Of a stretch of 64,000 nt of DNA, positions 3,597-35,980 are shown in pieces. A model generated the notes under the pieces. The model had not been told where the DNA came from. It saw only the letters and a list, made by a program, of their open reading frames with translations, and searched no databases. The position numbers were made by a program, and so were the translations under genes. Source of the DNA: an uncultured Candidatus Saccharibacteria bacterium (GTDB lineage: Bacteria; Patescibacteriota; Minisyncoccia; Phycocordibacterales; UBA9973); the NCBI GenBank assembly GCA_964362545.1, contig CAYIEM010000001.1:17424-81423 (forward strand). The letters are read 5' to 3'. Numbering within the stretch: position 1 is the first letter of the stretch; the number at the start of each line of letters is the position of its first letter.

Positions 3597-4646
3597 TCAC
3601 ATTGTTGGTTTCGAAAATGGCGGATATAGGTCTTTATCTATTATTCTCTCAAAGCAAGTCCTGCCTGTCTCGTGTTCCCAGGATTCGTTTATCCCGCCAC
3701 CTGGATAAGGATAAGAAGTCGCGATATCCCTTCCGCCGTAATCCATCATTGGTACAACTCCGCCGCCTTTATATTCTATCCATCCTTTCGGTATCGGTAG
3801 AGCAAAAGTCGCGCAAAGCTCAAACTTTAATTTGTCCTTTACCGCATATTCGTAAGTTTTTCCTTTTTCAAATTCTGGATCAATCGGCAGAGAGTATCCT
3901 GTAAGCGGGTTAGCCAAGTCGGACAATTTTTCCGGAAGTTTTTCCTTTAATTGCCAATAATTTATCACTTGATATTGAATGCCCTGCAGATCTCCCACTC
4001 TCCTGTCGTCAAACCTTAGCAACCTTTGCTTCGCAGGACTTCCCATGACTAGAAAACTACAGGAAATAGCCACGACTACGAATGCAATCCCCAATACACC
4101 TAAGATTAGACTGGCTTTAGACGAAACATCTTTCCCTTTAAGCACAAATATATGATAAATACCAATCAAAGCTACAACCGCAAGCACAACTATTACTTTC
4201 AAAATGAATCGCGTGGTCACCTCGCCGGAAACAAAGTACTTTATCAAGGCGACCAAGTCTACCATGGTCACGATGGCAGACAGAAATAATATGATATATA
4301 CTATCCATTTTTTTATAACTTCATCTACGGAACCCATCATTCCTCTGGCAAACTTCCTCCAGAAACGAGAAACAATCAAATAGACAGGGAAAAATATAAT
4401 GAGTGTGGCTAGAGCCATGCGGATACTCTCGTATTCATAGGTGGAGTACCCATACTGATAACTCGCATTTAAAACGTCCGGGAACTTCTTATTTAAGGTC
4501 TCGAAAACTAAGTTAAGGAAAGAAGTGACAGAAGTTATTAATGTTATTAATAATCCTAGAGACAAGAAAAAGAAACCTGCACTCATTCCTCGCCTACCGG
4601 TAGGTAGGTTAGGCTTATCCACTTGCAAATTTTGTTGTGTTTCCAT
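3597..4646 (-). CDS. Hypothetical multi-pass membrane protein with Gly/Pro-rich C-terminal soluble domain
   Basis: 349 aa ORF with at least 5 hydrophobic helices in the N-terminal 200 aa. C-terminal domain (...GGGVVPMMDYGGRDIATSYPYPGGGINESWEHETGRTCF) has no recognised family. Confidence 0.45.
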   Translation of the reverse strand: METQQNLQVDKPNLPTGRRGMSAGFFFLSLGLLITLITSVTSFLNLVFETLNKKFPDVLNASYQYGYSTYEYESIRMALATLIIFFPVYLIVSRFWRKFARGMMGSVDEVIKKWIVYIILFLSAIVTMVDLVALIKYFVSGEVTTRFILKVIVVLAVVALIGIYHIFVLKGKDVSSKASLILGVLGIAFVVVAISCSFLVMGSPAKQRLLRFDDRRVGDLQGIQYQVINYWQLKEKLPEKLSDLANPLTGYSLPIDPEFEKGKTYEYAVKDKLKFELCATFALPIPKGWIEYKGGGVVPMMDYGGRDIATSYPYPGGGINESWEHETGRTCFERIIDKDLYPPFSKPTM

Positions 4647-4683
4647 ATTTTATAGTATATCATATCTCCGTAATATAATTAAT

Positions 4684-5034
4684 ATGAGAAAAAAGTTTGA
4701 GAACTTTTCAAAGAAACTAACTCACTGGATTGGCTCGCCCCAATCTATTATTTTACATACTATTTTTTTTGTGGGAATATTTTTTTTGAGATTTTTTAAT
4801 TTCTCTTCTTCCGATGTTCTTCTGATTTTAACCACAATAGTTTCGCTCGAAGCTATATATCTTTCTATTTTTATACAAATGACTGTAAACAGGCATACAG
4901 AGGAGCTCGAAGAGGTATCCGAAGATGTGGAGGAAATACAAAAAGATGTCGACGAGATTCAGGAAGACGTCGAGGACATAGTAGAAGACATGGAAGAAGA
5001 AGACAGGACGAGGGTCATAGAGGATGCCAGATAG
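4684..5034 (+). CDS. Small 2-TM membrane protein with acidic coiled-coil tail (DUF1003-like)
   Basis: ATG at 4684 (MRKKFENF...) avoids the overlap with the upstream convergent gene. Two hydrophobic helices, then EELEEVSEDVEEIQKDVDEIQEDVEDIVEDMEE. The segment LSIFIQMTVNRHTEE resembles the DUF1003 core. Paralog at 39478-39924. Confidence 0.45.
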   Translation: MRKKFENFSKKLTHWIGSPQSIILHTIFFVGIFFLRFFNFSSSDVLLILTTIVSLEAIYLSIFIQMTVNRHTEELEEVSEDVEEIQKDVDEIQEDVEDIVEDMEEEDRTRVIEDAR

Positions 5035-5944
5035 CAGTGCTCGCTAGCGATATAAAACGATCTTTCGATTTTTCTTTCAGACAAAGTTCTCCTTGTTTTG
5101 TTTCTCCCCCAAAGTCTTTCATCGTCTCCTCTAACGCATATCCTAGGGAGAGTGGAGAAAAATCTACAGCATAAGAAGTCAAAATAACAAAAAGGGGCTT
5201 ATCGCTTAAAACCCTTCGCATACTCGCGAGAAGTTTCGATAAATCTTTTTCTATTTCCCAAGTTTCCCCTTTTGGTCCGCGACCGAATTTAGGCGGATCC
5301 ATGATAACAGCGTCGTATCTGTTTCCCCTTTTCACCTCCCTCTCTAAAAATTTCACAGTGTCATCTAAAATAATCCGAAGTGGCATTTTATCTAATCCAG
5401 TATCTGTATTGAGTTTCTGATTTTGTTTTACCCATTCGAGTGTTTGTTTTGATGCATCCACGTGCGTTACTTCGGCGCCTGCTTTAAGCGCAAACAAACT
5501 AGCCACACCAGTATATCCGAATAAATTTAAAAACTTAATTTTTCTTTTTTGCGGAAGTCCGACTTCCACAAATTTTAACTTCTCTTCAATAAAATCCCAA
5601 TGGCTGGCCTGTTCCGGAAAGAAGCCCAAATGACGAAAAGGTGTGGGAGAAGCTAAAAATTTGATACCCTTATATGACATTCCCCATTTTGAACCAATGT
5701 CAAAGGCTACCTTTGACATTTTCCAACCGGACTTAGCGCCTTCTTTTGAGCTCCAAAATTTGCCATTAGCTTTAGCCCAAGTTTTTTGCACTTCCGGCGT
5801 CAGTGCCTTCGGCCAAACAGCATCTTCGTAAGGCCGCACGAAAATAAAAGGACCGAACCTCTCCAGCTTCTCTCCATCGCCCGTATCTAAAAGTTCATAA
5901 TCTTTCCAATCTTCCGAACAAAAAATTTCTATTTTATTTTTCAT
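5015..5944 (-). CDS. Class I SAM-dependent (rRNA) methyltransferase, RlmI-like (PF10672-type)
   Basis: 309 aa. Rossmann motif FLNLFGYTGVASLFALKAGAEVTHVDAS. N-terminal YELLDTGDGEKLERFG resembles the RlmI-family core. Confidence 0.6.
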   Translation of the reverse strand: MKNKIEIFCSEDWKDYELLDTGDGEKLERFGPFIFVRPYEDAVWPKALTPEVQKTWAKANGKFWSSKEGAKSGWKMSKVAFDIGSKWGMSYKGIKFLASPTPFRHLGFFPEQASHWDFIEEKLKFVEVGLPQKRKIKFLNLFGYTGVASLFALKAGAEVTHVDASKQTLEWVKQNQKLNTDTGLDKMPLRIILDDTVKFLEREVKRGNRYDAVIMDPPKFGRGPKGETWEIEKDLSKLLASMRRVLSDKPLFVILTSYAVDFSPLSLGYALEETMKDFGGETKQGELCLKEKSKDRFISLASTAIWHPL

Positions 5945-5954
5945 ATTTTTAATA

Positions 5955-6944
5955 CTATATCAAAAATTCTACGACATCTCCGTCTTTCACGATGTATTCT
6001 TTTCCCTCTGTTCGCACTTTTCCTTTTGCTCTGGCGTTTGCGTATGACCCGGCATCCAGCAACTCCTGCCAATTTATGACCTCCGCACGAATAAATTTCT
6101 CTTTGAAATCTGTATGTATCGCCATACCGGCTACGGGCGCTGTAGAGCCTATTTTTATAGTCCAGGCTCTAGTTTCATCCTCGCCAGTTGTAAAAAAGGT
6201 CTCAAGGCCAAGTAGAGCATAACTTTGTTTTATCAACTCATCAAATCCTTTTTCGAAAACTGGATCTATTTTTACTGAAAGACCAGGCAACTCTACTTCC
6301 GCGTTTTCACTCGCCTCTGAAATATTCAAGACATAAAGCATGGGTTTTAAGGTAAGTAAGTTCAAAGATTTTATTTTTAATTTTTCTTCTTCATGCAAGT
6401 TCGCTTCAGCAGCCATTTTCCCATCGCTTAAAACTTTCTCTATTTTTTTTAAAATACCTTCTTCGAAAATCGCTTCCTTGTCTCCTTTCTTTAAATCTTT
6501 CCCTAAGTTTATAATTCTTTTTGAAACTATTTCCAAATCGGCCAAGGCAAGCTCCAGATTTATTACTCCGATATCCTGCATCGGATCTACCTTATTCGCT
6601 ACATGGATCACAGAATTATCTTTAAAGACTCTTACAACATGAGCTATCGCATCTACTCCGCGGATGTTGGTAAGAAATTTATTGCCCAAACCCTCTCCCT
6701 TTGATGCTCCAGCTACAAGCCCGGCAATGTCTACGAACTCTATGACCGCGGGGATGGTTTTTGCTGATTTTGAAAAATCGGAAAGTTTTTCCACTCTCTC
6801 GTCTGGCACAGGTACAATACCAACCGACGGGTCAATGGTGCAAAAAGGATAATTTTCCGCCGGCACGCTTTTCTTTGTGAGTGCATTAAAGAGAGTGGAC
6901 TTACCTACATTTGGCAGACCGACGATGCCGATAGATAATGACAT
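5955..6944 (-). CDS. ychF: Ribosome-binding ATPase YchF (Obg-like ATPase)
   Basis: GIVGLPNVGKSTLFNALT P-loop, coiled-coil insert, C-terminal TGS domain (VRTEGKEYIVKDGDVVEFL). Confidence 0.85.
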   Translation of the reverse strand: MSLSIGIVGLPNVGKSTLFNALTKKSVPAENYPFCTIDPSVGIVPVPDERVEKLSDFSKSAKTIPAVIEFVDIAGLVAGASKGEGLGNKFLTNIRGVDAIAHVVRVFKDNSVIHVANKVDPMQDIGVINLELALADLEIVSKRIINLGKDLKKGDKEAIFEEGILKKIEKVLSDGKMAAEANLHEEEKLKIKSLNLLTLKPMLYVLNISEASENAEVELPGLSVKIDPVFEKGFDELIKQSYALLGLETFFTTGEDETRAWTIKIGSTAPVAGMAIHTDFKEKFIRAEVINWQELLDAGSYANARAKGKVRTEGKEYIVKDGDVVEFLI

Positions 6945-6980
6945 ACTTAAAATATAACAGACTTATGGTAAACTAATCAA

Positions 6981-7841
6981 ATGCTTTCGCTTTATGTCGC
7001 CGCTTGGATTGCTTCCATTTCTTCTGGGTTTGAAGCAATTGTTGGTAAAATAATCAGCAAACATAGCGTCTCAAACCCGTGGCTTTTTAATTTCTTCTGG
7101 AGTTTTTTTGTTCTAATTGGAATTACTATATCGGGTTTTTGGTTCGGACTTGGTATTCCAGAAAAATGGACTTACATAATTTTTGGGTCTTTGATGTATG
7201 CTCTCGTCAAAATCTCTTTCACCTTAGCACTTTACAAAATTGATGTTTCAGTAATGGGTCCAATGTTTGCGCTACGTACTGTCATGGCTGTGTTAATCGG
7301 ATCTATTTTCCTCGGTGAAATACTTACGCCATACCAATACTTACTTATAGGAATAGTTTTTCTAGCTGGGATATTTGTCAGTCTAGATGAAAGATTGAAC
7401 TTGAAATCGTTTTTCAATAAGTGGATAGGTGTATTGCTTATTTGTATGCTTTGTCTTGTATTTTTGGCTATGTTTATTAAAAAATCTTCAACCGTAAACG
7501 ATTTTTGGGATACTATTGTTTGGGTCGCTCTCCTGGGTCAGATTTGGCTTCTTTTTACTGTGAAATTTTTCAAAAAAGATTTAATCCTGACCACTCCACA
7601 ACAATACGGCTATATCGGAGTCATGGCTCTCATAGGAACAATTACTAGTATTTTCGCTAACTTTGCATACTCTAAAAATATCAGCTTATCGGCAGTAATA
7701 ATCTCTCTCCCCATTTCTATGGTTTTAGCCTTCCTTCTTTCCAGATTTGTGCCAGAGCTCCTCGAAAAACATACCCTCAGAATTTATGCGATCAGGTTTG
7801 TAGCGGCTGCTGTGATGATAACAGTAGCGTTGAATTTATAG
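6981..7841 (+). CDS. DMT/EamA-like membrane transporter
   Basis: 286 aa, about 10 predicted TM helices, two-repeat architecture typical of EamA/DMT family. Confidence 0.5.
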   Translation: MLSLYVAAWIASISSGFEAIVGKIISKHSVSNPWLFNFFWSFFVLIGITISGFWFGLGIPEKWTYIIFGSLMYALVKISFTLALYKIDVSVMGPMFALRTVMAVLIGSIFLGEILTPYQYLLIGIVFLAGIFVSLDERLNLKSFFNKWIGVLLICMLCLVFLAMFIKKSSTVNDFWDTIVWVALLGQIWLLFTVKFFKKDLILTTPQQYGYIGVMALIGTITSIFANFAYSKNISLSAVIISLPISMVLAFLLSRFVPELLEKHTLRIYAIRFVAAAVMITVALNL

Positions 7842-7856
7842 CTCAAGAATATGAAT

Positions 7857-8072
7857 CTACACTAGTTTTTTCAACTCTTCTTCGTATTTTTTCATCACTT
7901 CCATTCCGGCCGTATCTTGATCCATTCCACTTTTTACTTTTGCTTGTATTTCTTCTGCGATAGTTTTGAAAAGCTCCGGATTTTTCTCCATCATCTTTAT
8001 AAACATATCAATCTGCGCTTCCGGCACACTCTGTTTGGCAAGCATCTTTTTTAATAAATAATTTTTAAACAT
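7857..8072 (-). CDS. Hypothetical small K/E-rich helical protein
   Basis: The ORF track ORF 7857-8201 overlaps the upstream gene. Internal ATG at 8070-8072 (MFKNYLLKK...) gives a non-overlapping 71-aa product. No homology recognised. Confidence 0.3.
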   Translation of the reverse strand: MFKNYLLKKMLAKQSVPEAQIDMFIKMMEKNPELFKTIAEEIQAKVKSGMDQDTAGMEVMKKYEEELKKLV

Positions 8073-8094
8073 AAAACCAGTATAGCATAAATTT

Positions 8095-8937
8095 TTATTC
8101 CAATATCTCAAAATCACTTCCTGGACTTTCTCCTCGGGGTTGTTGCCTGTTGCGGTAACGAATGTAGTATGCTGCGCCTGCACCGATTCCAGTGAGAACA
8201 ATTAGTCCGACAACGCTAGACCATAGATTATTCGCTGTATCCAAATCGTTCTCGATAACCTCTGCTAATAAATTTTCAGCCGGTATCTCCATTTCTTTTT
8301 TTGGCAATTCTTCTATTGGTAAAACTTGCTTTTCTTTTTTGATAGAAACTTGAACATCTTTCTTTGGAGCATCCACAGTTTTGGGTATTTTTATTGAAGC
8401 AGGGCTCGGAGTTGGAGTTTTAATCGGTTCGATAATTTTATTCTCCATCCCTGGAGTAGGCGAAGCGGCAACCCAAAAATTTACTTTTCTTTGTAGAGAT
8501 TTACCATCTCCTTTAGCCCCCAAGGAAGAATTGTAAACATATTGATCAATAATATTTAAATCTTTGTCTTTGAGCGCCAAAGTTTCCCCACTATTGCCTA
8601 ACGAGAAAGTCGAATCGAAGATAGTTCCAGAAAAACTAGGCCAATCTGCCCTAAATTTAACCGGATTAGAAGCAATCACCGCATAGCTCTGCGCCTCGAT
8701 ATTTTGATTTCCCTGAAACAAAATGAGTTTGTGATTCGTGTCCGCTTCAAAAAATCTATAAGATGCTAAGTCCACTGACACATTCCCATTATTGAATATT
8801 TCGATCCACTCTCTACCATCGTCGGTACCTGTCTTTAGATCATACATTACTTCGTTTATCAAGAGTTCGGCCTGCGCTAGATTGAAAGAAAAAAATGCAA
8901 TAAGTCCTAAATGAAATAAAATTGTTTTCCTAAACAT
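8095..8937 (-). CDS. Membrane-anchored lamin-tail-domain (LTD) protein
   Basis: Signal peptide (MFRKTILFHLGLIAFFSFNLAQA), LTD signature LLINEVMYD...GREWIEIFNNGNVSVDLASY...GETLAL, Pro/Thr linker, C-terminal TM helix plus basic tail. Confidence 0.6.
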   Translation of the reverse strand: MFRKTILFHLGLIAFFSFNLAQAELLINEVMYDLKTGTDDGREWIEIFNNGNVSVDLASYRFFEADTNHKLILFQGNQNIEAQSYAVIASNPVKFRADWPSFSGTIFDSTFSLGNSGETLALKDKDLNIIDQYVYNSSLGAKGDGKSLQRKVNFWVAASPTPGMENKIIEPIKTPTPSPASIKIPKTVDAPKKDVQVSIKKEKQVLPIEELPKKEMEIPAENLLAEVIENDLDTANNLWSSVVGLIVLTGIGAGAAYYIRYRNRQQPRGESPGSDFEILE

Positions 8938-10339: not shown

Positions 10340-10358
10340 GACAAGGTTAAACCTTGTC
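10340..10358. repeat. REP-like 19-bp palindrome copy 1 (GACAAGGTTAAACCTTGTC)
   Basis: 9-bp stem GACAAGGTT/AACCTTGTC around a single A. Overlaps the 3' end of the transposase gene. Confidence 0.8.
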
Positions 10359-11075
10359 CGCGTTGTTGTCCGCGCTGTCTTCGTTAGCATCCTTAAACTT
10401 CAGCCATTCCTTTACAAAATCTCCAAAATCCAACTTGGAGCTAAAGTATTCTGGAAATTCCGATACGTCAATAATTTTGCTTTCTACCCTACTGACCCCA
10501 GCGAGATCCAAGTAACTGGAATATCTATATTCGCTCAGGTATTTTTCCGATTCATGCAGATTTTTAATTCCATTCTCTTTCCACTCAGGGTCGATTAATT
10601 TAACTGGATTTAAGTTTATATAAGCAAAAAGATATTTCAAATATTCGTCTTTCGTCACATGCTTCGCCTTAAAAGTACCTTGGAAAAGCGAACCATTTCT
10701 GTCGTTCTTCTTGTTGAAATACATCGTGTAAGCTGTTTGCAATTTTTGCATGAACTTACTAACCCCATTGTCTACCCTCTCTTTAATCAATAAATGAAAA
10801 TGGTTTGGCATCAAACAAAATGCGCCTATACTAACCAATGTTTCTTTTCTATCCATTTGAAAAATCTCGGACAAGGTTAAACCTTGTCTTAACTGGTCGC
10901 CAATATCCACCCTTTCGTAACTGTTGCATGAGTAAAGCAGAACCAGAAAACGCGAGTAATCATTCGCGTTTGTAAAAATTTTCCTTTTATCAGTACCTCT
11001 GTTATATAGATGGTAATATTCGCCTATTGAGAATTCCAAGTTTCTTGTCATGCATACATGATAACTAAAAAACAA
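10347..11075 (-). CDS. IS200-like / REP-associated tyrosine transposase (Y1 HUH, COG1943)
   Basis: EYYHLYNRG...DYSRFLVLL...AFCLMPNHFHLLIKE (HUH motif)...MQKLQTAYTMYFNKKNDRNGSLFQGTFKAKHV...YINLNPVK. Start may be the internal MTRNLEF. Confidence 0.75.
   Translation of the reverse strand: MFFSYHVCMTRNLEFSIGEYYHLYNRGTDKRKIFTNANDYSRFLVLLYSCNSYERVDIGDQLRQGLTLSEIFQMDRKETLVSIGAFCLMPNHFHLLIKERVDNGVSKFMQKLQTAYTMYFNKKNDRNGSLFQGTFKAKHVTKDEYLKYLFAYINLNPVKLIDPEWKENGIKNLHESEKYLSEYRYSSYLDLAGVSRVESKIIDVSEFPEYFSSKLDFGDFVKEWLKFKDANEDSADNNADKV
10870..10888. repeat. REP-like palindrome copy 2, inside the transposase coding sequence
   Basis: Exact 19-mer. Encodes RQGLTLS in-frame within the tnp ORF. Confidence 0.8.
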
Positions 11076-11081
11076 GATTTT

Positions 11082-11100
11082 GACAAGGTTAAACCTTGTC
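11082..11100. repeat. REP-like palindrome copy 3
   Basis: Exact 19-mer immediately upstream of the tnp start and abutting the tkt C-terminal-subunit stop. Confidence 0.8.
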
Positions 11101-12099
11101 CGGTTTATTTCGATCGAGGATTTTATGCGCTGCTTTTTGGATGTCCTTCACCCCCATTCCGTAATGCTCGATGAGTTCGTCGGGTGTACCGGACTGGCCG
11201 AATTTGTTTTGCACCCCGATGAATTCCATCGGCACCGGGTAATTTTGCGCGAGCACCTCGGCAACTACGCTCCCCATGCCGCCGGAAACTTGGTGTTCTT
11301 CGACTGTAATAATCGCTTTGCACTCTTTTGCCAAAGCTATGATGGCTTCGTCGTCTGTCGGCACGATTGATGACAGATTCATTACTTTAGTTTTTACACC
11401 TTCCGTCTCCAATTCTTTAGCCGCGAGCATCGCGCGGTGAACAAGCGCGCCGGTGGCGATGATTCCGACATCTGCTATCCCGACATCCGGAATCCAAAAT
11501 ACCCGCGCCTTGCCTATTTCAAAAGGAGTTTCTTCAGTAGTTATGATAGGTGTCTTCTCTCGAGCCAGACGCAGGTATGCCGGCTTTTTGGTTTTAGCGA
11601 GAACAAGCGTCACCTTTTTTGCCTCTATGCTATCGCACGGGCTAAGCACATCCATATTGGGAAGCACTCGCATCAGCGCGATGTCTTCAAGCGCTTGGTG
11701 CGTGCCACCATCAGGACCCACAGAAATACCCGCGTGCGAACCGACTATCACCACCTTTCTGTCGTTGTAAGCAATCGTCGTCCTTATTTGTTCCCAATTG
11801 CGCCCTGGAGAAAACATCGCGTAAGAAGAACAAAAAGGAATTTTACCCATAGCGGCCATCCCCGAAGCCACAGTCACCAAATTCTGCTCCGCCACACCTA
11901 CTTCAATAAATCTCTCCGGAAATTTTTCTTTGAAAAAATGCATTTGCGTAGACTCCGTCAAATCCGCGCAAAGCGCCACCACATTTTTATCCGCCTCTCC
12001 TGCCAACACGAGTCCCTGCCCGAAACCTTTGCGAATAGGCGCCTGTTCGCAGTCTTGATTGAAAATCTTCGGATTTAATTTTAATGCTGGGTTTAACAT
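11089..12099 (-). CDS. tkt: Transketolase, C-terminal (pyrimidine-binding) subunit
   Basis: 336 aa. FGQGLVLAGEADKNVVALCADLTEST...IEVGVAEQNLVTVASGMA, typical split-Tkt subunit B. Confidence 0.85.
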   Translation of the reverse strand: MLNPALKLNPKIFNQDCEQAPIRKGFGQGLVLAGEADKNVVALCADLTESTQMHFFKEKFPERFIEVGVAEQNLVTVASGMAAMGKIPFCSSYAMFSPGRNWEQIRTTIAYNDRKVVIVGSHAGISVGPDGGTHQALEDIALMRVLPNMDVLSPCDSIEAKKVTLVLAKTKKPAYLRLAREKTPIITTEETPFEIGKARVFWIPDVGIADVGIIATGALVHRAMLAAKELETEGVKTKVMNLSSIVPTDDEAIIALAKECKAIITVEEHQVSGGMGSVVAEVLAQNYPVPMEFIGVQNKFGQSGTPDELIEHYGMGVKDIQKAAHKILDRNKPDKV

Positions 12100-12222: not shown

Positions 12223-13098
12223 TTACTGATGCTCACTCCTAATTTTACCGCCAAGCGTACGCAACTCTTCTAATGCAATCTTTGCTTCATCTTTGTTTGG
12301 TGTTTTACCATGCCAATGATAATCTCTGTCAAATTCTTTCACTCCTTTACCAGGGATGGTTCTCGCTATCAATACGGACGGTTTTTCAAAAACTGCCTTC
12401 GCTCGCTCTATCGCGCTATTTACCTCTTCAAAGTCATGCCCGTTTACCTCCTGTGCATGCCAGCCAAATGCTTCGTATTTCAAGACCAAGTCGCCAAGAG
12501 GCATTATGTCTTCGGTGTAACCATCTATTTGAATATTGTTTCTATCCACTATCACTATCAGATTATTTAATTTTTCCTTGGACGCCAAAAGAATAGCTTC
12601 CCAGGTGTTCCCTTCATCGTGCTCGCCATCGGAAAGTAGTGCATAAATATATCTCTCGGAATTTCTATCTCTATCGATCCTATCCGCGAGTGCCATGCCT
12701 ACCGCTTGCGAAAGCCCAGCACCTAGCGGTCCAGAGGAAGTTTCAAGCCAAGGCATGTATTCCCTATGTGGATGACCTTGAAGTCTAGTACCAAACTTGC
12801 GCAAAGTCTTCAATTCTTCTATGGGAAAATATCCTGCGTGCGCCATAGTCGCGTATAATACCGGACATATATGCCCGTTTGAAAGCACCAATCTGTCGCG
12901 CTCTTCCCCAATAGGACTTCCTAGCGGATTTTTAGGGTCGTGTTTCAAAACATGAAAATAAAGAAGAGTAAAAATATCAGCCATACCGAGAGGTCCCGCC
13001 GTATGCCCACTCCCGGCTTCTACCAACATCTCAATAATGCTTTCTCTAATGTCGTTAGCTTTTATCTCTAGCTCCTGTATTTTTTCTTGAGTTAACAT
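12223..13098 (-). CDS. tkt: Transketolase, N-terminal (TPP-binding) subunit
   Basis: 291 aa. GSGHTAGPLGMADIF, GHPH, DGEHDEGNTWEA motifs. Confidence 0.85.
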   Translation of the reverse strand: MLTQEKIQELEIKANDIRESIIEMLVEAGSGHTAGPLGMADIFTLLYFHVLKHDPKNPLGSPIGEERDRLVLSNGHICPVLYATMAHAGYFPIEELKTLRKFGTRLQGHPHREYMPWLETSSGPLGAGLSQAVGMALADRIDRDRNSERYIYALLSDGEHDEGNTWEAILLASKEKLNNLIVIVDRNNIQIDGYTEDIMPLGDLVLKYEAFGWHAQEVNGHDFEEVNSAIERAKAVFEKPSVLIARTIPGKGVKEFDRDYHWHGKTPNKDEAKIALEELRTLGGKIRSEHQ

Positions 13099-13163
13099 AT
13101 TAATCTATATTATAACAAAATAAATTTACAAATACCATACTTCTGCTTTACATATTCAATTTG

Positions 13164-13181
13164 CTACAATATACTGTAGTA
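13164..13181. promoter_or_regulatory. 18-bp palindromic motif CTACAATATACTGTAGTA (site 1, upstream of TrpR-like gene)
   Basis: Inverted repeat CTACA-N6-TGTAG (7-bp arms with flanks), in the divergent intergenic region between tktN and the HTH gene. Confidence 0.4.
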
Positions 13182-13218
13182 GATTATTAGTAATAAAATT
13201 AGTTTTTAGATATAATTT

Positions 13219-13638
13219 ATGCCACACGTATCAAGCAAAAAATTAAATCCCAAGCTTTTAGAAGAATTATTTGGAAAACTTCTTGCAGTCTTTGGGCAAG
13301 CACAAAACAAAAGATACTTGAAAGAAGTAACACGGGAGCTGTTCACCCGAACAGAAAAAATTATGCTTGCTAAACGCTTGGCTATTGTTCTTATGCTCGC
13401 GAATAATACTCCACAGCATAGGGTTGTAAATATATTGAAAGTCAGCCCAACTACTGTGGCGAAAACATCTCTCGGAATTGAAATCGGCAAGTACGACGCT
13501 ATTCTAAAAATTTCTAAAAAGGAAAAGACTGATATCGAGAAATTAGTATGGAATATTCTCACCGTCGGAGGAATTATGCCTCCAAAAGTAGGAAGAAAGT
13601 ACTGGAGAAAATATTCAAATAATAATACTACTTCCTAG
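13219..13638 (+). CDS. TrpR/YerC-family HTH DNA-binding protein
   Basis: 139 aa. LFTRTEKIMLAKRLAIVLMLANNTPQHRVVNILKVSPTTVAKTS parallels the TrpR/YerC LTPDExxALxxRxxIxxxLL...S.RxIxxxLGVSxATITRGS helix-turn-helix. Confidence 0.55.
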   Translation: MPHVSSKKLNPKLLEELFGKLLAVFGQAQNKRYLKEVTRELFTRTEKIMLAKRLAIVLMLANNTPQHRVVNILKVSPTTVAKTSLGIEIGKYDAILKISKKEKTDIEKLVWNILTVGGIMPPKVGRKYWRKYSNNNTTS

Positions 13639-13663
13639 CGTCTCACTTAATTAATCACCATCA

Positions 13664-13681
13664 GATTAATTTACTACAATA
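13664..13681. promoter_or_regulatory. 18-bp palindromic motif CTACAATATACTGTAGTA (site 2, downstream of TrpR-like gene)
   Basis: Identical 18-mer exactly 500 bp from site 1. Shared 5' flank AATTTxCTACA. Confidence 0.4.
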
Positions 13682-13731
13682 TACTGTAGTAAAATTCGAT
13701 ACGGTAAGAAAGAGAGAGCATTGTTCTATTT

Positions 13732-14460
13732 TTATAAATTTTTAAACTCTTCTATCTTTTCAATTATATCATCTGCATTAAAAATCGCTGAACCTATAAT
13801 GAGCTTCGTCGCTCCGGCTTCTACTAGTCTGGGCGCCGTCTCTTCATTTACCCCAATATCAACTGCAATGGGTATGTCAACGTATTCTTCTCTGAAACTC
13901 TTAATTTTTTCATAGACCTTTTCATCTAGCTCTATTCCTGCTCCTTGGTATCCTTCCCTGTCGTTGCCCATAAACTGCACGAAATCAACACACGAAACCA
14001 GGGGATAAATCTGTCCTAGGGGGGTGCTAGGATTCATGGCTACACCTATATCTATGGCATCCCGAATATAATTATCCATGCCTTCCAAAAAATTTTTAAA
14101 TTCTTCCAATTTGCCAACAGCCTCTAAATGAAAAACTATTTTCTTCGGACCTAGTTTGGTATAAATATCAAAATTCTCCACCGCATCTGCTACCAGTAAA
14201 TCAATCTCAAAATCGACGTCCTCCCAAAAAGGCATACCCTCCTCTTCGTTTAGAATTTTTCTAAAATGCTCGTCTAGATTGTTTTCCAAAAAAAGCGCAT
14301 CTCTCCTAGAAGGCGAGTTGAATGGCCAGGTTATGGACGGAACAAAAACTCCATCGCATATATCCACTTGAACAACACCCGCTGTCCCACGAACAAGCGC
14401 GACTTTATTCTTCAAATCCTCGTAACTTTTTGTCAGTATTGATGGAATTATTTCTACCAT
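13732..14460 (-). CDS. rpe: Ribulose-phosphate 3-epimerase-like
   Basis: IIPSIL...VDICDGVFVP signature. 242 aa TIM-barrel epimerase. Confidence 0.7.
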   Translation of the reverse strand: MVEIIPSILTKSYEDLKNKVALVRGTAGVVQVDICDGVFVPSITWPFNSPSRRDALFLENNLDEHFRKILNEEEGMPFWEDVDFEIDLLVADAVENFDIYTKLGPKKIVFHLEAVGKLEEFKNFLEGMDNYIRDAIDIGVAMNPSTPLGQIYPLVSCVDFVQFMGNDREGYQGAGIELDEKVYEKIKSFREEYVDIPIAVDIGVNEETAPRLVEAGATKLIIGSAIFNADDIIEKIEEFKNL

Positions 14461-14480: not shown

Positions 14481-14957
14481 TTATTCTATTTTTATTTTAT
14501 CTATTTTACCTAGACGACGAACATGTCTCTCGTCCCCAGAAAAAGGAGTGTCGAGCCAAAGATTAACTGCGCTCATTATGTTGTCTTCTGTAAAATATCT
14601 GGCACCCAAGGAAAGAATGTTTGAATTGTTGTGCTGCCTTGAACGTATTATGATGTCTGAATCATTGTCTACGACTGGCTTCGCATTACCATAGTCTACG
14701 ACAGCCCTGACATGAGGAAACTTATTGGCGGTAATCGCCTCCCCTTCTCCTGTACCGCCTAAAACAATTCCCCTGACATTTTCTGAATCCTTCGATACCT
14801 CCTCTGCCACAGGAATGACAAAATCTGGATAGTCATCGTGCTCGTTGTATTCGTATGCGCCCTTGTCTATGACCTCATGTCCCTGAAGTTTTAAAGAAGA
14901 TACGATCTTCTCCTTAAATACATAACCAGCGTGATCTGTGCCAATAAAAATTTTCAT
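14481..14957 (-). CDS. rpiB: Ribose-5-phosphate isomerase B
   Basis: MKIFIGTDHAGYVFK... RpiB/LacAB family, 158 aa. Confidence 0.85.
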   Translation of the reverse strand: MKIFIGTDHAGYVFKEKIVSSLKLQGHEVIDKGAYEYNEHDDYPDFVIPVAEEVSKDSENVRGIVLGGTGEGEAITANKFPHVRAVVDYGNAKPVVDNDSDIIIRSRQHNNSNILSLGARYFTEDNIMSAVNLWLDTPFSGDERHVRRLGKIDKIKIE

Positions 14958-32064: not shown

Positions 32065-33861
32065 TTAATACACTTCCTGTTGATAACATTTCTCACAGTA
32101 AACTATTTCTGGTCTGTCTGGTGCATAACCAGTTTTGAATTTCTCATTGCAAGGATTATCTCCATGCTCATGACTTACTGTGTTTTGATAAACACCAGTA
32201 CTGTCTTTCTCTCCCGCGCACATACAGGACCGTTCGTATAAACCTACCTTTAACCTGTCACTTATTCTGCGCTCGTGCCTACATTCACCGCAAATACGTG
32301 GTATCGACAATTTTTCCTTTTTAAAAAATAAAAATTCATTCTCTAGAATTTTATACGGATTTTTACATTCCTTACATTCTACTACTTCTTTTAAAATATT
32401 ATCGCTGACTTCGTTGATTGAATTTTCAAGCTCTGTTGCCTTTTTTGTCATTTTATAGTTGCCCCGGGACACTTCTATCCACGTATATCCTTTTTTCCTT
32501 GCTTCTGCTTCTGTTAGCGAAAAATGCTGCATCGCGACAGTATTGTTGTAACCGAGTGGAGAAAGTTCGGTAGGAAAAAATTCTCCATATTTATAAGTCA
32601 AACCCTGTGAATCTGTGTAAGGCATTTCATCCATGTGTTTTTTTATTTTGGGCACAAGTTTTTCATACTCTTCTTTAGAATATTGTTTGTTTAAAATACA
32701 ATACTGTTTCTTTTTTAAACCAACACAACCAAAGCAGTCTGAAGAACTAAAAAGGTGCGTACAATATTCATTGTTCCTTGAAGATGGCCAGCAACTGCGC
32801 GAGAATTTATTATTGTAAGAATTGTCTCCGCATTCTAAAGTTTCATAATTCATTTCGGTATGATCCCCCCAATTACAAGAATCATAATTATCTTTGTTGC
32901 CCGGAACTTGCATATATTGGCAATAGCGCATATTTTCGCTTTCTCTGATAAGATAACTGTCGTTTACGTTTTTGCAATTAGTGACATAAGATCCGGAAGA
33001 ATTTAAGTTTTTTAAACCCTGAAGATATTTGAAGGGAAAGGTGTTCCAAAAATTTCTGGCTTTTATTCTGGAGGCTTCAATGCTCAAGGCTGTATCAAGA
33101 TTCATTTTTTTCAATTCTTTAAAATATTCCTCCTTTGCGTATTTTTTATTAAAAATACAATATGAAGAATTGCGCAGATTAGCGCAACCGAAACAATTAT
33201 GACACGAAACACAATCCTTGCAAAACCACAAATCCCTGGAATCTGAAGACATTATTGTGAAATAGCACTGATAACAATTTTCTAACCAAAGACATTCGTA
33301 GCAACGCTCGGAATGTTTTACGTGAGAATTATCGACACAATCTTTACAAGAATCTATCCCGTTTCCATACATACAATCTTCAGAATCATTTGAGTTAACA
33401 ATCAAGTAACTATTCTTTACATAAGAAGCATTGAAAACATATGGACTATTGACAATTCCAATATTATTAAAGTTATATACCGGTACAACTTTATTTAATT
33501 CCTCAATTTGGATTAAAAACGGCTTCGTGAAGTCAATATCCACACTATACTTTATTGCATCAAAGTTGTCTCCGAACCATTCTTCTCTGGTCATTATTTT
33601 CCGACCACTTTCTTTTGGATATGAGGAAAAAATCTCTTTGCCTGTCAAAAAATTGACAACTTTGAAAAGTTTGCGCTCATTTCTCCAAGCCAACCTCCTC
33701 TGCGCCCGGCACAAGGGACAAAAAGTTGGTGGCGGCACCTGCATTTTTTCATAAAAAGAAAAATCATCCGGCTCAATGATGAAGTCTTTTTTACAGTTCT
33801 GGCAGTTTTTTGTTTCGTCTTGCATATCTTTTGCTTTTTGCCCTGTGGTGAATTCTAGCAT
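32065..33861 (-). CDS. Cys-rich repeat protein, paralog A (unknown function)
   Basis: 598 aa, about 50 Cys, no signal peptide. True start probably M13 (MQDETKNCQNC, ATG 33823-33825) by comparison with paralogs. Shares N-terminal CQNCKKxFxIEPDDFxFYxxxxVPPP..CP.CR..RR and C-terminal YxPDRPEI(V/I)YCExCY(Q/K)QEVY with paralogs B and C. Confidence 0.5.
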   Translation of the reverse strand: MLEFTTGQKAKDMQDETKNCQNCKKDFIIEPDDFSFYEKMQVPPPTFCPLCRAQRRLAWRNERKLFKVVNFLTGKEIFSSYPKESGRKIMTREEWFGDNFDAIKYSVDIDFTKPFLIQIEELNKVVPVYNFNNIGIVNSPYVFNASYVKNSYLIVNSNDSEDCMYGNGIDSCKDCVDNSHVKHSERCYECLWLENCYQCYFTIMSSDSRDLWFCKDCVSCHNCFGCANLRNSSYCIFNKKYAKEEYFKELKKMNLDTALSIEASRIKARNFWNTFPFKYLQGLKNLNSSGSYVTNCKNVNDSYLIRESENMRYCQYMQVPGNKDNYDSCNWGDHTEMNYETLECGDNSYNNKFSRSCWPSSRNNEYCTHLFSSSDCFGCVGLKKKQYCILNKQYSKEEYEKLVPKIKKHMDEMPYTDSQGLTYKYGEFFPTELSPLGYNNTVAMQHFSLTEAEARKKGYTWIEVSRGNYKMTKKATELENSINEVSDNILKEVVECKECKNPYKILENEFLFFKKEKLSIPRICGECRHERRISDRLKVGLYERSCMCAGEKDSTGVYQNTVSHEHGDNPCNEKFKTGYAPDRPEIVYCEKCYQQEVY

Positions 33862-33876
33862 ATGCTAGAATTCACC
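33847..33876. promoter_or_regulatory. Perfect 30-bp palindrome GGTGAATTCTAGCATATGCTAGAATTCACC
   Basis: Self-complementary over all 30 nt. Centred on the annotated ATG of paralog A, about 21 nt upstream of the more likely start. Confidence 0.5.
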
Positions 33877-33894: not shown

Positions 33895-35610
33895 TCAGTA
33901 TACTTCTTGTTTGTAACAACTTTCGCAATACACTATTTCGGGTCGGTCGGGAGAGTAGGAAGTCTCTATTGCTATATCGCATTTGTCACATTTGCGATTA
34001 TAAGTTTGCATTCCATTTAATTGCTTGATACGAGCTCTATCTCGACAAAGCGGGCAATGGCGCGGAATAGGTAAATTAAAACGTTTCAAGAACTGTAATT
34101 CTTTGGGGATTATCTGATAATTCTTCCCACATGCCTCACATTTCAAAATCGCCTTCAAAACATCGTCTGTGACATCTTTAATATGGTCGGGCAATATAAT
34201 GGTAGCATCTAAATATTCTCGTTGGTCAGGATCCCGCCAGGCAAAACCTCTCCCTATGGCCTCTTCTTTAGTGAGCGGAAAGAATTCGTAGGCAGTGGAC
34301 TCATTGTATGGCCAGGGACACAAATCAATTGGTATCTGTCCACCATACTTGTGCTCTAGTCCCCTTCTGTCAATGAAAGGAACTTCCATCATTTGTTTTT
34401 TAATTTTTTCAACCAATGGGAAATATTCTTCTTTGGTATATTGTTTATTAAAAATGCAATATTCGGCCTTTCGCAAACCGACGCAACCAAATAAATATCC
34501 ACATCCATGACAGCCAAAAGTATATTCCGTATCGTGATTGCGATAATTCCAGACGCTGAATTTTACATTGGAAGTATTATACCCCGTCCAAGTCGCCTCA
34601 TAGACCCATTCTGAAGTGGTGCCAAAAGCGGTAAAATCATAACAATTGTGCGCTGGACCCTTCAAAAACAGTTGCGCATATTTCAAATTTTCCGAGTCAG
34701 GAACATAGTACGCGTTATGAACATTCTTTGAATTATAAATATATTCTCCAGAGATGTTGTTGTTATTCCTGCCCAAAGTCGCCCGACGCGGATAATTTAG
34801 TGAAAAAGCATATGCCTGTTTTTTTAGTTTTTGTAAATTTTTTGCAGATCCCAAGTCAAATTCTTTTAATTTTTTAATATACTCTTCTCTTGTAAATTGT
34901 TCATTAAAAATGCAGTAATTTTTATTGCGCAAGCTTGTACAGCCAAAACAATCCCCGCAATTAATCAAATCGCGCGAAAAATAAATGTTTTGACAATTTT
35001 CACAATCCTGCGAGAAAAAAGTCTGGAAACATTTGCGAACATCTACTATCTCATAACAGAGTTCTGGGTCTGCTGAATATGCCACCTCTAGAGAATCTTT
35101 GGTGTTTAAAGCGACATTAGTATACGCAGAATCTTCGCCAGTAATATGTTTAAAACACAGGTAATCATTTTTTTGGAAACTGGCGGCATTGCAATATTCG
35201 CTATTCACCATAGTGCTGTATTCCGTATGAAGCGACGCTTTGGGAACCTCATCCATCAATTCTTTAAATTGTTCAAAAAAGGATCTAGAAAAATCATATT
35301 CCCTGCCGTAACTTTTCGGATCCCATTTGTCACCCCACCAAATATCTTGTTTATATACTTTATACGGTAAATCCGGATGGTAGAACGTGATAATATTCTC
35401 TCCGGTAAAATCACATTTGCGTTTGTATAATATCCTATAACCGTACCAAGCCATTCTGCGAAGCAACCTGCAATGCGGGCACCACACGGGAGGCGGCACT
35501 TTCATCTGCTCATAAAATCCAAAATCGTCTGGTTCAATAATGAAGTTTTTTTTACAGTTTTGACATTGTTTAGTTTCACTTTGTGTATTCATTTTGTCGT
35601 TTTGCAACAT
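33895..35610 (-). CDS. Cys-rich repeat protein, paralog B (unknown function)
   Basis: 571 aa. Likely start M7 (MNTQSETKQCQNC). Internal repeats CxNCxxIYFSRDLINCGDCFGCTSLRNKNYCIFNEQFTREEY and CHGCGYLFGCVGLRKAEYCIFNKQYTKEEY. Confidence 0.5.
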   Translation of the reverse strand: MLQNDKMNTQSETKQCQNCKKNFIIEPDDFGFYEQMKVPPPVWCPHCRLLRRMAWYGYRILYKRKCDFTGENIITFYHPDLPYKVYKQDIWWGDKWDPKSYGREYDFSRSFFEQFKELMDEVPKASLHTEYSTMVNSEYCNAASFQKNDYLCFKHITGEDSAYTNVALNTKDSLEVAYSADPELCYEIVDVRKCFQTFFSQDCENCQNIYFSRDLINCGDCFGCTSLRNKNYCIFNEQFTREEYIKKLKEFDLGSAKNLQKLKKQAYAFSLNYPRRATLGRNNNNISGEYIYNSKNVHNAYYVPDSENLKYAQLFLKGPAHNCYDFTAFGTTSEWVYEATWTGYNTSNVKFSVWNYRNHDTEYTFGCHGCGYLFGCVGLRKAEYCIFNKQYTKEEYFPLVEKIKKQMMEVPFIDRRGLEHKYGGQIPIDLCPWPYNESTAYEFFPLTKEEAIGRGFAWRDPDQREYLDATIILPDHIKDVTDDVLKAILKCEACGKNYQIIPKELQFLKRFNLPIPRHCPLCRDRARIKQLNGMQTYNRKCDKCDIAIETSYSPDRPEIVYCESCYKQEVY

Positions 35611-35635
35611 ATTTGAATATTCTCATTCTATAATT

Positions 35636-35935
35636 CTATAGAATATTAGAATAGTTATTCATAAATTTATAAGAAAAGGGTTCCGCGTATTTTTCTAAAA
35701 CAATTCTCTCGTATTTATCTAGCTTATCAAATCCTAGAATAAAATTCTTAACCACATTCCATTCTTCTCTCCCAGCAGGAATTATATCTCTAAAATTTAA
35801 TATTTTATTTACAATGTCTAATGAACGAATCTGAGCATTTTGCGCGGCCTCTATTTTCCCAGAATCTAAAAAGGAAAACATTCTTCTGATTTCCGGATAT
35901 AAGTTTGCCATATAAAAAAGCGAATCTTTTTTCAT
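35636..35935 (-). CDS. Hypothetical 99-aa protein interposed in Cys-rich paralog cluster
   Basis: Co-directional and tightly spaced. No homology recognised. Confidence 0.4.
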   Translation of the reverse strand: MKKDSLFYMANLYPEIRRMFSFLDSGKIEAAQNAQIRSLDIVNKILNFRDIIPAGREEWNVVKNFILGFDKLDKYERIVLEKYAEPFSYKFMNNYSNIL

Positions 35936-35980
35936 AATTTTCTATTCTAATATTCTATAGAATTATAGAATACTTTCCCC

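Follow-up and report, generated by a model that had tools for sequence, protein, structure and literature searches.

The locus described here raises the question of why a small gene for a helix-turn-helix (HTH) protein should be enclosed by two copies of the same palindrome. It lies in a stretch of 64,000 nucleotides, hereafter called the window, from an uncultured, ultra-small groundwater bacterium of the Patescibacteria, recorded as Candidatus Saccharibacteria (assembly GCA_964362545.1, contig CAYIEM010000001.1, positions 17,424 to 81,423 of the forward strand). The gene encodes a protein of 139 amino acids (aa) with a predicted TrpR fold, and the palindromes, named U for the upstream and D for the downstream copy, stand before its start codon and behind its stop codon (Table 1). 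We consider it likely that U and D are the cognate twin operators of an autoregulated TrpR-fold repressor encoded between them, with D serving as a second operator via looping or as a roadblock.

On its forward strand, the window has exactly two copies of the 18-mer CTACAATATACTGTAGTA, at 13164-13181 and 13674-13691, with a copy-to-copy spacing of 510 bp. A preliminary description of this DNA had already reported the identical pair and had the first copy in the right place, but it put the second at 13664-13681 and the spacing at exactly 500 bp, both of which are corrected here. Including their flanks, the copies form a direct repeat of 24 nt with 23/24 identical positions (AATTT(G/A)CTACAATATACTGTAGTA, 13158-13181 and 13668-13691), and both are imperfect palindromes of about 28 bp with their dyads at 13171/13172 and 13681/13682, respectively. 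The downstream copy is symmetric over TTTACTACA/TGTAGTAAA, and the upstream copy carries two G·T-type mismatches in its outer arm. No further CTACAATATACTGTAGTA site with up to three mismatches was found in the 64 kb, and the relaxed pattern CTACA-N6-TGTAG, with one mismatch allowed, gave a single extra match in the window, which is unrelated. Shuffled sequences yielded an expectation of 0.06 matches per 64 kb for CTACAATATACTGTAGTA, and the observed count was reached by 0/100 shuffles.

To see how far this arrangement extends, 80 loci with relatives of the gene were taken from GTDB species genomes (Paceibacteria), comprising 14 orthologs of 55-80% identity and many paralogs of 30-45%, and the upstream and downstream regions were compared de novo against 20 shuffles per locus. 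All 14 ortholog loci have a palindrome of 24-28 bp of the type AATTTnCTACnnTATAnnGTAGnAAATT shortly before the ATG and shortly after the stop codon. A matching U/D element was revealed in 69/80 loci, counting the window, and almost all of these scored higher than the best of their 20 shuffles; correction of the start of the open reading frame (ORF) added three more (72/80). In these 72 loci, a palindrome specific to the lineage occurs twice, 0-60 nt before the ATG and 0-60 nt behind the stop codon, with median distances of 25 nt from dyad to ATG and 34 nt from stop to dyad, and a median U-D spacing of 471 bp (interquartile range 458-487). Another six loci show a weaker pair with the same core; the exceptions are L015, with only half of D, and L052, with differing palindromes at its two ends (TATCATATATGATA upstream and ACATACAATATACTGTATAT downstream, 3960-4440).

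The palindromes are symmetric to +/-13, and U and D are 90% identical at positions 1-12 from the dyad and 44% identical at positions 13-20. Their sequence diverges sharply by subfamily, for example CTACAATATACTGTAG, CTACGATATATCGTAG, CTATCATATATGATAG, TTCGATTAATCGAA, and GTAGCGATGCATCGCTAC, and paralogs of the same genome carry different palindromes (L009/L039, L014/L074, and L010/L018). Where canonical GC-rich terminators can be seen, U and D do not include them but are enclosed by them (e.g., L009, L016, L020, L025, L056, L073, and L081), which means that U, gene, and D form one unit. The upstream neighbor is co-directional in 48/66 loci and the downstream neighbor convergent in 46/65, so that D is generally no promoter operator for the next gene.

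The window holds one more small gene bracketed by twin palindromes, a 99-aa ORF without Pfam match at 35636-35935 on the reverse strand: ATTCTAATATTCTATAGAATTATAGAAT stands at 35944-35971, 8 nt upstream of its ATG, and the exact reverse complement (28/28) at 35625-35652 overlaps its stop codon. Its homologs in four other loci (L214-L217), where the gene directly follows a DUF5674 gene, have no palindrome pair, so this bracket is not conserved, and with this gene family as control we rejected the idea that twin palindromes are generic for small genes.

When the loci were sorted by half-site, residue 78 of the enclosed protein, within the motif S-P-X-T, was found to track the fourth base from the dyad: in raw counts, taken without phylogenetic correction, Thr78 goes with the half-site CA(A/G/T)TA and an A at base 4 in 17/21 loci, Ser78 with CGATA and a G in 24/31, and Ala78 with TCATA and a C in 16/17. 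At least three independent co-switches occurred within clades of 70-83% identity, namely L208 (Thr) versus L210/L212 (Ser), which are 79-81% identical and share the same synteny, L054 (Thr) versus L067 (Ser), 73% identical, and L033/L034/L029 (Thr) versus Ala-type members of their own subfamily (70-83%). In the syntenic orthologs, U and D have changed together, with CTACAATATACTGTAG in the window and L208 and CTACGATATATCGTAG in L210 and L212. This joint change, along with the covariation of residue 78, is the strongest argument that the encoded protein would bind both palindromes. Indeed, of the two possibilities raised by the preliminary description, autoregulation through two operators and a small cassette, the first is now strongly supported by the family-wide bracket (72+6 of 80 loci) and by the residue-78/base-4 covariation. 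An exception to the pairing is the Ser78 locus L049 (3970-4450), which displays hybrid sites with one CGATA half and one TCATA half.

The protein itself matches the Pfam family Trp_repressor (PF01371) with E=1.7e-5 and 25.2 bits, under the gathering score of 27, and a precomputed PF01371 match exists for nearly all of the 120 homologs listed. A profile of 25 homologs, compared with the PDB, ranked the TrpR-like/YerC structures 3FRW, 3G1C, and 3KOR first, in full-length alignments with weak E-values of 0.08-0.28. The AlphaFold2 monomer model (predicted local distance difference test score 83) has seven helices, and in a Foldseek search of the PDB its matches at ranks 1-30 were all TrpR or TrpR-like chains; ranks 1-25 were E. 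coli TrpR (probability 0.84-1.0), with a target template modeling score of 0.58-0.67 and a probability of 1.0 for the top matches, and ranks 26 and 30 were TrpR-like 3frw and 3kor. By hhalign, residues 20-85 fall on TrpR 21-87 and residues 73-85 (LKVSPTTVAKTSL) on TrpR 75-87 (LGAGIATITRGSN), placing T78 opposite TrpR Ala80 at the start of the recognition helix. At the level of finer families, the NCBIfam TrpR equivalog TIGR01321 reached 20.5 bits against a cutoff of 67.25, which was the only NCBIfam match, and the YerC/YecD model gave none. In addition, the protein begins with MPHxS and has GGIMPP..KYW as a C-terminal motif, both invariant in the family. Judged from these profiles and the predicted structure, it is a remote member of the TrpR fold and an ortholog neither of E. 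coli TrpR nor of HisR/YerC. The earlier label “TrpR/YerC-like” is thus appropriate for the fold and superfamily but not for the YerC/HisR or TrpR equivalogs, whose models were not matched.

With 747 clusters at 50% identity (E<=1e-10), this is a large family, and its annotated homologs come from Nomurabacteria and Paceibacterota (Patescibacteria). An identical protein is present on Hainich groundwater contigs, and no second family member was found within the 64-kb window.

From these features, the following mechanism can be proposed. A dimer would read each dyad-symmetric site of about 26 bp, and in each half-site base pair 4 would be contacted by residue 78, where the recognition helix starts. 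U would overlap or abut the gene's own promoter, which would result in negative autoregulation. D, in the 3' untranslated zone and usually facing a convergent gene, would be the second operator; it may cooperate with U through a DNA loop of about 470-510 bp enclosing the gene, or a protein bound there may form a roadblock insulating the small gene from neighboring convergent transcription. In the window, D sits between the convergent 3' ends of the HTH gene and rpe. A promoter-like constraint was observed on U only: where the core is CATATATG (28 loci), TATACT forms the right arm of 22/28 U sites, 5-25 nt before the ATG, but of only 5/28 D sites, which points to an extra -10-like constraint on U and implies short or absent leaders.

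Table 1. Positions of the HTH gene, its two palindromes, and the adjoining genes in the window.
Feature	Position	Strand	Basis and remarks
tktC (split transketolase)	11089-12099	-	Pfam
tktN (split transketolase)	12223-13098	-	Pfam; divergent from the HTH gene; 59 nt from the upstream palindrome
Predicted sigma-70-like promoter, TTTACA-17-TATACT	13147..13175	+	10/12 consensus match; -10 is the center of the U palindrome
Upstream palindrome U (putative operator), AATTTGCTACAATA/TACTGTAGTAGATT	13158..13185	.	dyad-to-ATG 47 nt; within the 120 bp that separate tktN from the divergent HTH gene
TrpR-fold HTH gene, 139 aa	13219..13638 (stop included)	+	Pfam, AlphaFold2 model, Foldseek, hhalign; recognition helix begins S76-P77-T78-T79
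Downstream palindrome D (putative operator), AATTTACTACAATA/TACTGTAGTAAAAT	13668..13695	.	dyad 43 nt past the HTH stop; 40 nt before the rpe stop codon
rpe	13732-14460	-	Pfam; convergent with the HTH gene; 40 nt beyond the downstream palindrome
rpiB	14481-14957	-	Pfam; convergent with the HTH gene

ORF positions and Pfam matches bear out the layout first described, with the HTH gene divergent from the split transketolase genes and convergent with rpe-rpiB. The neighbors thus are tkt, rpe, rpiB, and pfkB; no trp genes were found in the neighborhood, and no his or histidine-transport genes near the HTH gene. The order tktC-tktN/HTH/rpe-rpiB is common to the window, L208, L210, and L212. Many other Nomurabacteria have rpiB-rpe-tktN-tktC as an uninterrupted run, ahead of which stands a paralogous family member that carries palindromes of its own; in L026, L033, L036, L045, L048, L051, L053, L059, and L077 (about 4000-8300 in each), this paralogous subfamily lies directly upstream of and co-directional with the four genes. 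Its members show 36-45% identity and palindromes of the TATCATATATGATA type, and hence two different subfamilies are linked to pentose-phosphate genes. The preliminary description also suggested that the pentose-phosphate genes might be governed by this arrangement, and it is possible that tktC and tktN are co-regulated neighbors of the HTH gene; in the window, however, the upstream palindrome lies about 50 bp off the best tktN -10 candidate and not on it.

Two other features of this neighborhood were recorded. The window carries a gene for an IS200-like Y1 transposase (PF01797, 242 aa) at 10347-11075, between pfkB and tktC, which has no counterpart in L208, L210, and L212 despite their shared synteny and, therefore, is probably a lineage-specific insertion. 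In L208, the closest relative, which carries the 85% ortholog, each transketolase half was called as two fragments (3763-5619; 130+178 aa and 169+115 aa), reflecting either pseudogenization or frameshift errors of the assembly.

Away from the gene, about 450 kb of family loci contain few additional copies of the motif belonging to the respective locus (L011, L012, L016, and L071). A metagenome scan with CTACARTATAYTGTAGTA returned at least 120 loci, with a family gene adjacent in only four of the matches listed. Most of the matches listed are devoid of the family outer arms and lie on contigs of 23-64% GC; the majority of such matches appear to be unrelated or due to chance. A recurrent TTGCAAAATCGCGGCTACAGTATACTGTAGTATCGATTGCCCTA among the matches listed comes from gut-type contigs. 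About 17 of the matches listed carry the full AATTTACTACA..TGTAGTAAATT signature as solitary sites, for example between dprA and serS (L161), after pgk and before a gene for a TrmB-type regulator (L205), behind rpoD (L095), between a pair of Cys-rich ORFs that are paralogs (L133 and L173), and in frame inside reverse-transcriptase genes (L088/L119, L139, and L148). Further targets of the family proteins, therefore, probably exist.

The Cys-rich ORFs have a counterpart in the window, where a perfect 28-bp palindrome, GTGAATTCTAGCATATGCTAGAATTCAC, at 33848-33875 is located between Cys-rich ORFs that are paralogs of each other and about 570-600 aa long (32065-33861 and 33895-35610, reverse strand). 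At the equivalent place between homologous Cys-rich ORFs, L133 (4525-4542) and L173 (4048-4065) have a group-A-type palindrome (TACTACAATATA(C/T)TGTAGTA), which suggests that the Cys-rich genes are targets of family members with different specificities. The solitary sites within RVT_1 ORFs (L088 7340, L119 2924, L139 1386, and L148 6063) are 28-bp palindromes of the family type, encoding N-LLQY(I/T)V; its position is aa 250 in L148 and about aa 155 in the other three ORFs. The palindrome has been preserved although the sequence on either side has diverged. Its presence may reflect an operator within the gene or a coincidence of the coding sequence. One more perfect 28-bp palindrome, GTCGGAGTACCAAATTTGGTACTCCGAC, occurs at 1735-1762 of the window, and an Rfam scan of the whole window revealed no family.

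Several points weigh against twin operators of an autoregulated repressor. Binding as such, the sign of the regulation, and the part of D in looping or as a roadblock are what we infer from sequence patterns, and the residue-78 counts are not corrected for phylogeny. The window promoter is a consensus match only, whose -35 is not positionally conserved in L208/L212, and its exact position is, therefore, uncertain. No helical periodicity of the U-D spacing was found at 9.5-12 bp (p>0.2), and hence there is no positive sign of looping, though helical phasing is not required at about 470 bp. D is symmetric further out than U (Wilcoxon p=5e-5), with arms >=16 in 32 D versus 17 U sites; this exceeds the need of a TrpR-size dimer and hints at an additional hairpin or structural role. 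The solitary sites among the metagenome matches listed form no coherent regulon, none occurs in the 64-kb window, and a regulator with sites flanking only its own gene would be pointless.

Among the other explanations, a mobile or recombinational cassette is one of the two that survive best, though we regard it as unlikely. The palindromes would then be recombination sites, dif/pdif-like with an 11-6-11 layout or attC-like, at which the HTH gene could be inserted, inverted, or excised, and the HTH protein would at most aid recognition. Xer sites resemble the palindromes in their size of 28 bp and their 6-bp center. The unit is found in many genomic contexts, usually in convergent intergenic zones tolerant of insertions, and solitary family-type palindromes are located right after stop codons, e.g., in L205 and L094. 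In the window, the HTH gene lies in opposite orientation between rpe and tktN, two genes that many other Nomurabacteria have side by side (4-70 bp), and so looks like an insertion. However, three orthologs with 85% (P0002), 77% (P0009), and 76% (P0018) identity, at L208, L210, and L212/L213, respectively, keep both palindromes and the same position and orientation between tktN and rpe, and it is this comparison with related genomes that counts against the cassette proposed initially. Another ortholog (L008, 80%) is located elsewhere; taken together with the constant position in the others, this indicates that the palindrome-gene-palindrome unit relocates as a whole over long times and is no presence/absence cassette among near relatives, as far as these genomes tell. 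Paralog-specific sites within one genome, covarying with the recognition residue, are unexpected for a single host recombinase. Moreover, the syntenic loci have no recombinase gene next to the unit, and L208, L210, and L212 lack the Y1 transposase gene that is found 2 kb away in the window. Nor do the two imperfect copies keep a constant orientation to each other.

Just as improbable, in our estimation, is that the palindromes act as RNA or DNA hairpins, with D as a bidirectional terminator or an mRNA-stabilizing stem-loop, U as the terminator of the preceding gene, and their likeness incidental or due to gene conversion. The orientation of the neighbors given above (convergent behind D, co-directional before U) would fit, as would the symmetry of D, which outruns the shared core. 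In the window, folding energies are -8.4 to -8.8 kcal/mol for the D hairpin and -8.4 to -10.5 kcal/mol overall, with z of -2.2 to -3.1 on 3/4 strands. On the other hand, no terminator-like site was detected in 12900-14000, and neither arm is followed by a U-tract or any T enrichment in the 72 loci, so that D was rejected as a canonical intrinsic terminator. G·U-compatible mismatches are not enriched over A·C on the sense strand (U 21 vs. 53, D 28 vs. 20). The canonical GC-rich terminators outside the sites in several loci also speak against hairpins of this kind, and U, holding a -10-like hexamer, would not be transcribed as a whole hairpin. Above all, the 90% identity of U and D, the paralog specificity, and the residue-78 covariation would be left unexplained.

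Less probable still is that the sites belong to another factor, such as a global regulator or LexA, or that they represent promoter elements of a generic, bidirectional kind, with the HTH gene merely located between two of them. The outer arms (TAAATT/TAGATT) and the center (TATACT) resemble -10 hexamers, the core ACTGTA recalls SOS boxes, and about 116 of the at least 120 metagenome matches listed have no adjacent family gene. Most of those, however, are the matches without outer arms mentioned above, and the palindromes are paired with a family gene in about 78/80 loci despite being very different from each other. Base 4 follows residue 78 of the enclosed protein, and the control family of the 99-aa gene has no conserved bracket. 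The LexA box was rejected as a reading of the motif, which varies with the enclosed protein. Finally, that a pair of AT-rich palindromes arose by chance or lies at random positions, as the AT-rich region (39% GC) might suggest and as the preliminary description had allowed for, can be regarded as already refuted by the shuffles, by the absence of other sites in the 64 kb, and by the persistence of the pair across dozens of genomes.

Twin operators, read by the protein encoded between them, thus remain our preferred explanation. A wider and much more tentative proposal, which we would not yet give even chances, is that the hundreds of TrpR-fold regulators of Patescibacteria represent an undescribed self-bracketed module, a portable, context-independent, and insulated autoregulatory unit whose specificity is set by Thr, Ser, or Ala at residue 78 with co-switches of A, G, or C. 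If true, these pairings at half-site position 4 would be a natural recognition code for the TrpR fold, and the protein would build a loop or a roadblock pair around its own gene in tightly packed, reduced genomes. No description of self-bracketing operators or of TrpR-like regulators in Patescibacteria was found in the searchable literature. To our knowledge, almost nothing is known about transcriptional regulation in the Patescibacteria (Candidate Phyla Radiation), which cannot be cultivated on their own and possess hardly any regulators. Here, a large regulator family (747 clusters) would gain operators identified from sequence alone, together with a simple and checkable residue-to-base rule for the TrpR fold. 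With one operator at each gene end, the family would also offer a natural test case for autoregulatory looping or roadblock insulators in compact genomes, and the two subfamilies beside pentose-phosphate genes may provide a first handle on the possible control of central sugar metabolism.

How, then, does the locus compare with known systems? In REPtrons, formed by repetitive extragenic palindromic (REP) sequences and REP-associated tyrosine transposases (RAYT), and in pdif modules, a gene is flanked by short palindromes recognized by its own product (RAYT) or by XerC/D, with a site of 28 bp. Here, the enclosed gene encodes a TrpR-fold HTH protein without catalytic domain, only two copies occur in 64 kb, the sites are paralog-specific, and close relatives are syntenic. 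With no Y1 HUH transposase enclosed and no dispersed copies, the locus does not belong to the REP/RAYT elements. Neither does it belong to the recombination cassettes, given the position, orientation, and sites shared by L208, L210, and L212/L213 (76-85%), nor does one site type per genome, as in a recombinase-type cassette, apply to L009/L039, L014/L074, and L010/L018.

The gene of the phage lambda repressor CI is placed between its own operators OR and OL, and cooperative binding loops out the cI DNA and tunes its own promoter. The likeness consists in a repressor gene between two sets of its own operators, but lambda CI has an unrelated fold, octamerizes, and uses triple operators 2.4 kb apart, whereas single palindromes at about 470-510 bp surround a chromosomal gene here. 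The lac, gal, and deo loops (PMC3001091) likewise involve two cognate operators, the first at the promoter and the second farther downstream, no more than hundreds of bp away, comparable to the two cognate-type sites on the same DNA observed here (510 bp apart in the window, median 471 bp in 72 loci). In those systems, target operons are regulated and the auxiliary operator is found within the first structural gene or ahead of it, while here the loop would enclose the regulator's own gene throughout the family.

E. coli TrpR shares the fold (Foldseek probability 1.0, target template modeling score 0.65-0.67), a residue for specificity where the recognition helix begins (T78 aligned with Ala80), and, as a putative feature on our side, a dyad-symmetric AT-rich operator overlapping its own promoter. 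It differs in sequence (13-19% identity), in lacking the 30 extra residues with MPHxS and GGIMPP..KYW, in its trp context, as no trp genes are nearby here, and in that it is not known to have a second operator at the 3' end. HisR (YerC/YecD) of Firmicutes, also a small protein of the TrpR family, with HisR/YerC structures (3FRW, 3G1C, and 3KOR) as our best profile matches in the PDB, reads lineage-specific palindromes of about 20 bp and is frequently autoregulated (PMC9413887). In contrast to our protein of 139 aa, without YerC/YecD model match and without his genes or histidine transporters nearby, HisR has about 100 aa and its sites lie upstream of target operons. Autoregulation through palindromes of about 20 bp is already documented for the TrpR family, but a conserved 3' operator, flanking hisR or otherwise bracketing the regulator's own gene, is not described in PMC9413887. 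The bracket would be best understood as a TrpR-family autoregulator with a family-wide pair of self-bracketing operators, a readable specificity rule, and a 3' site whose role as second operator we infer.

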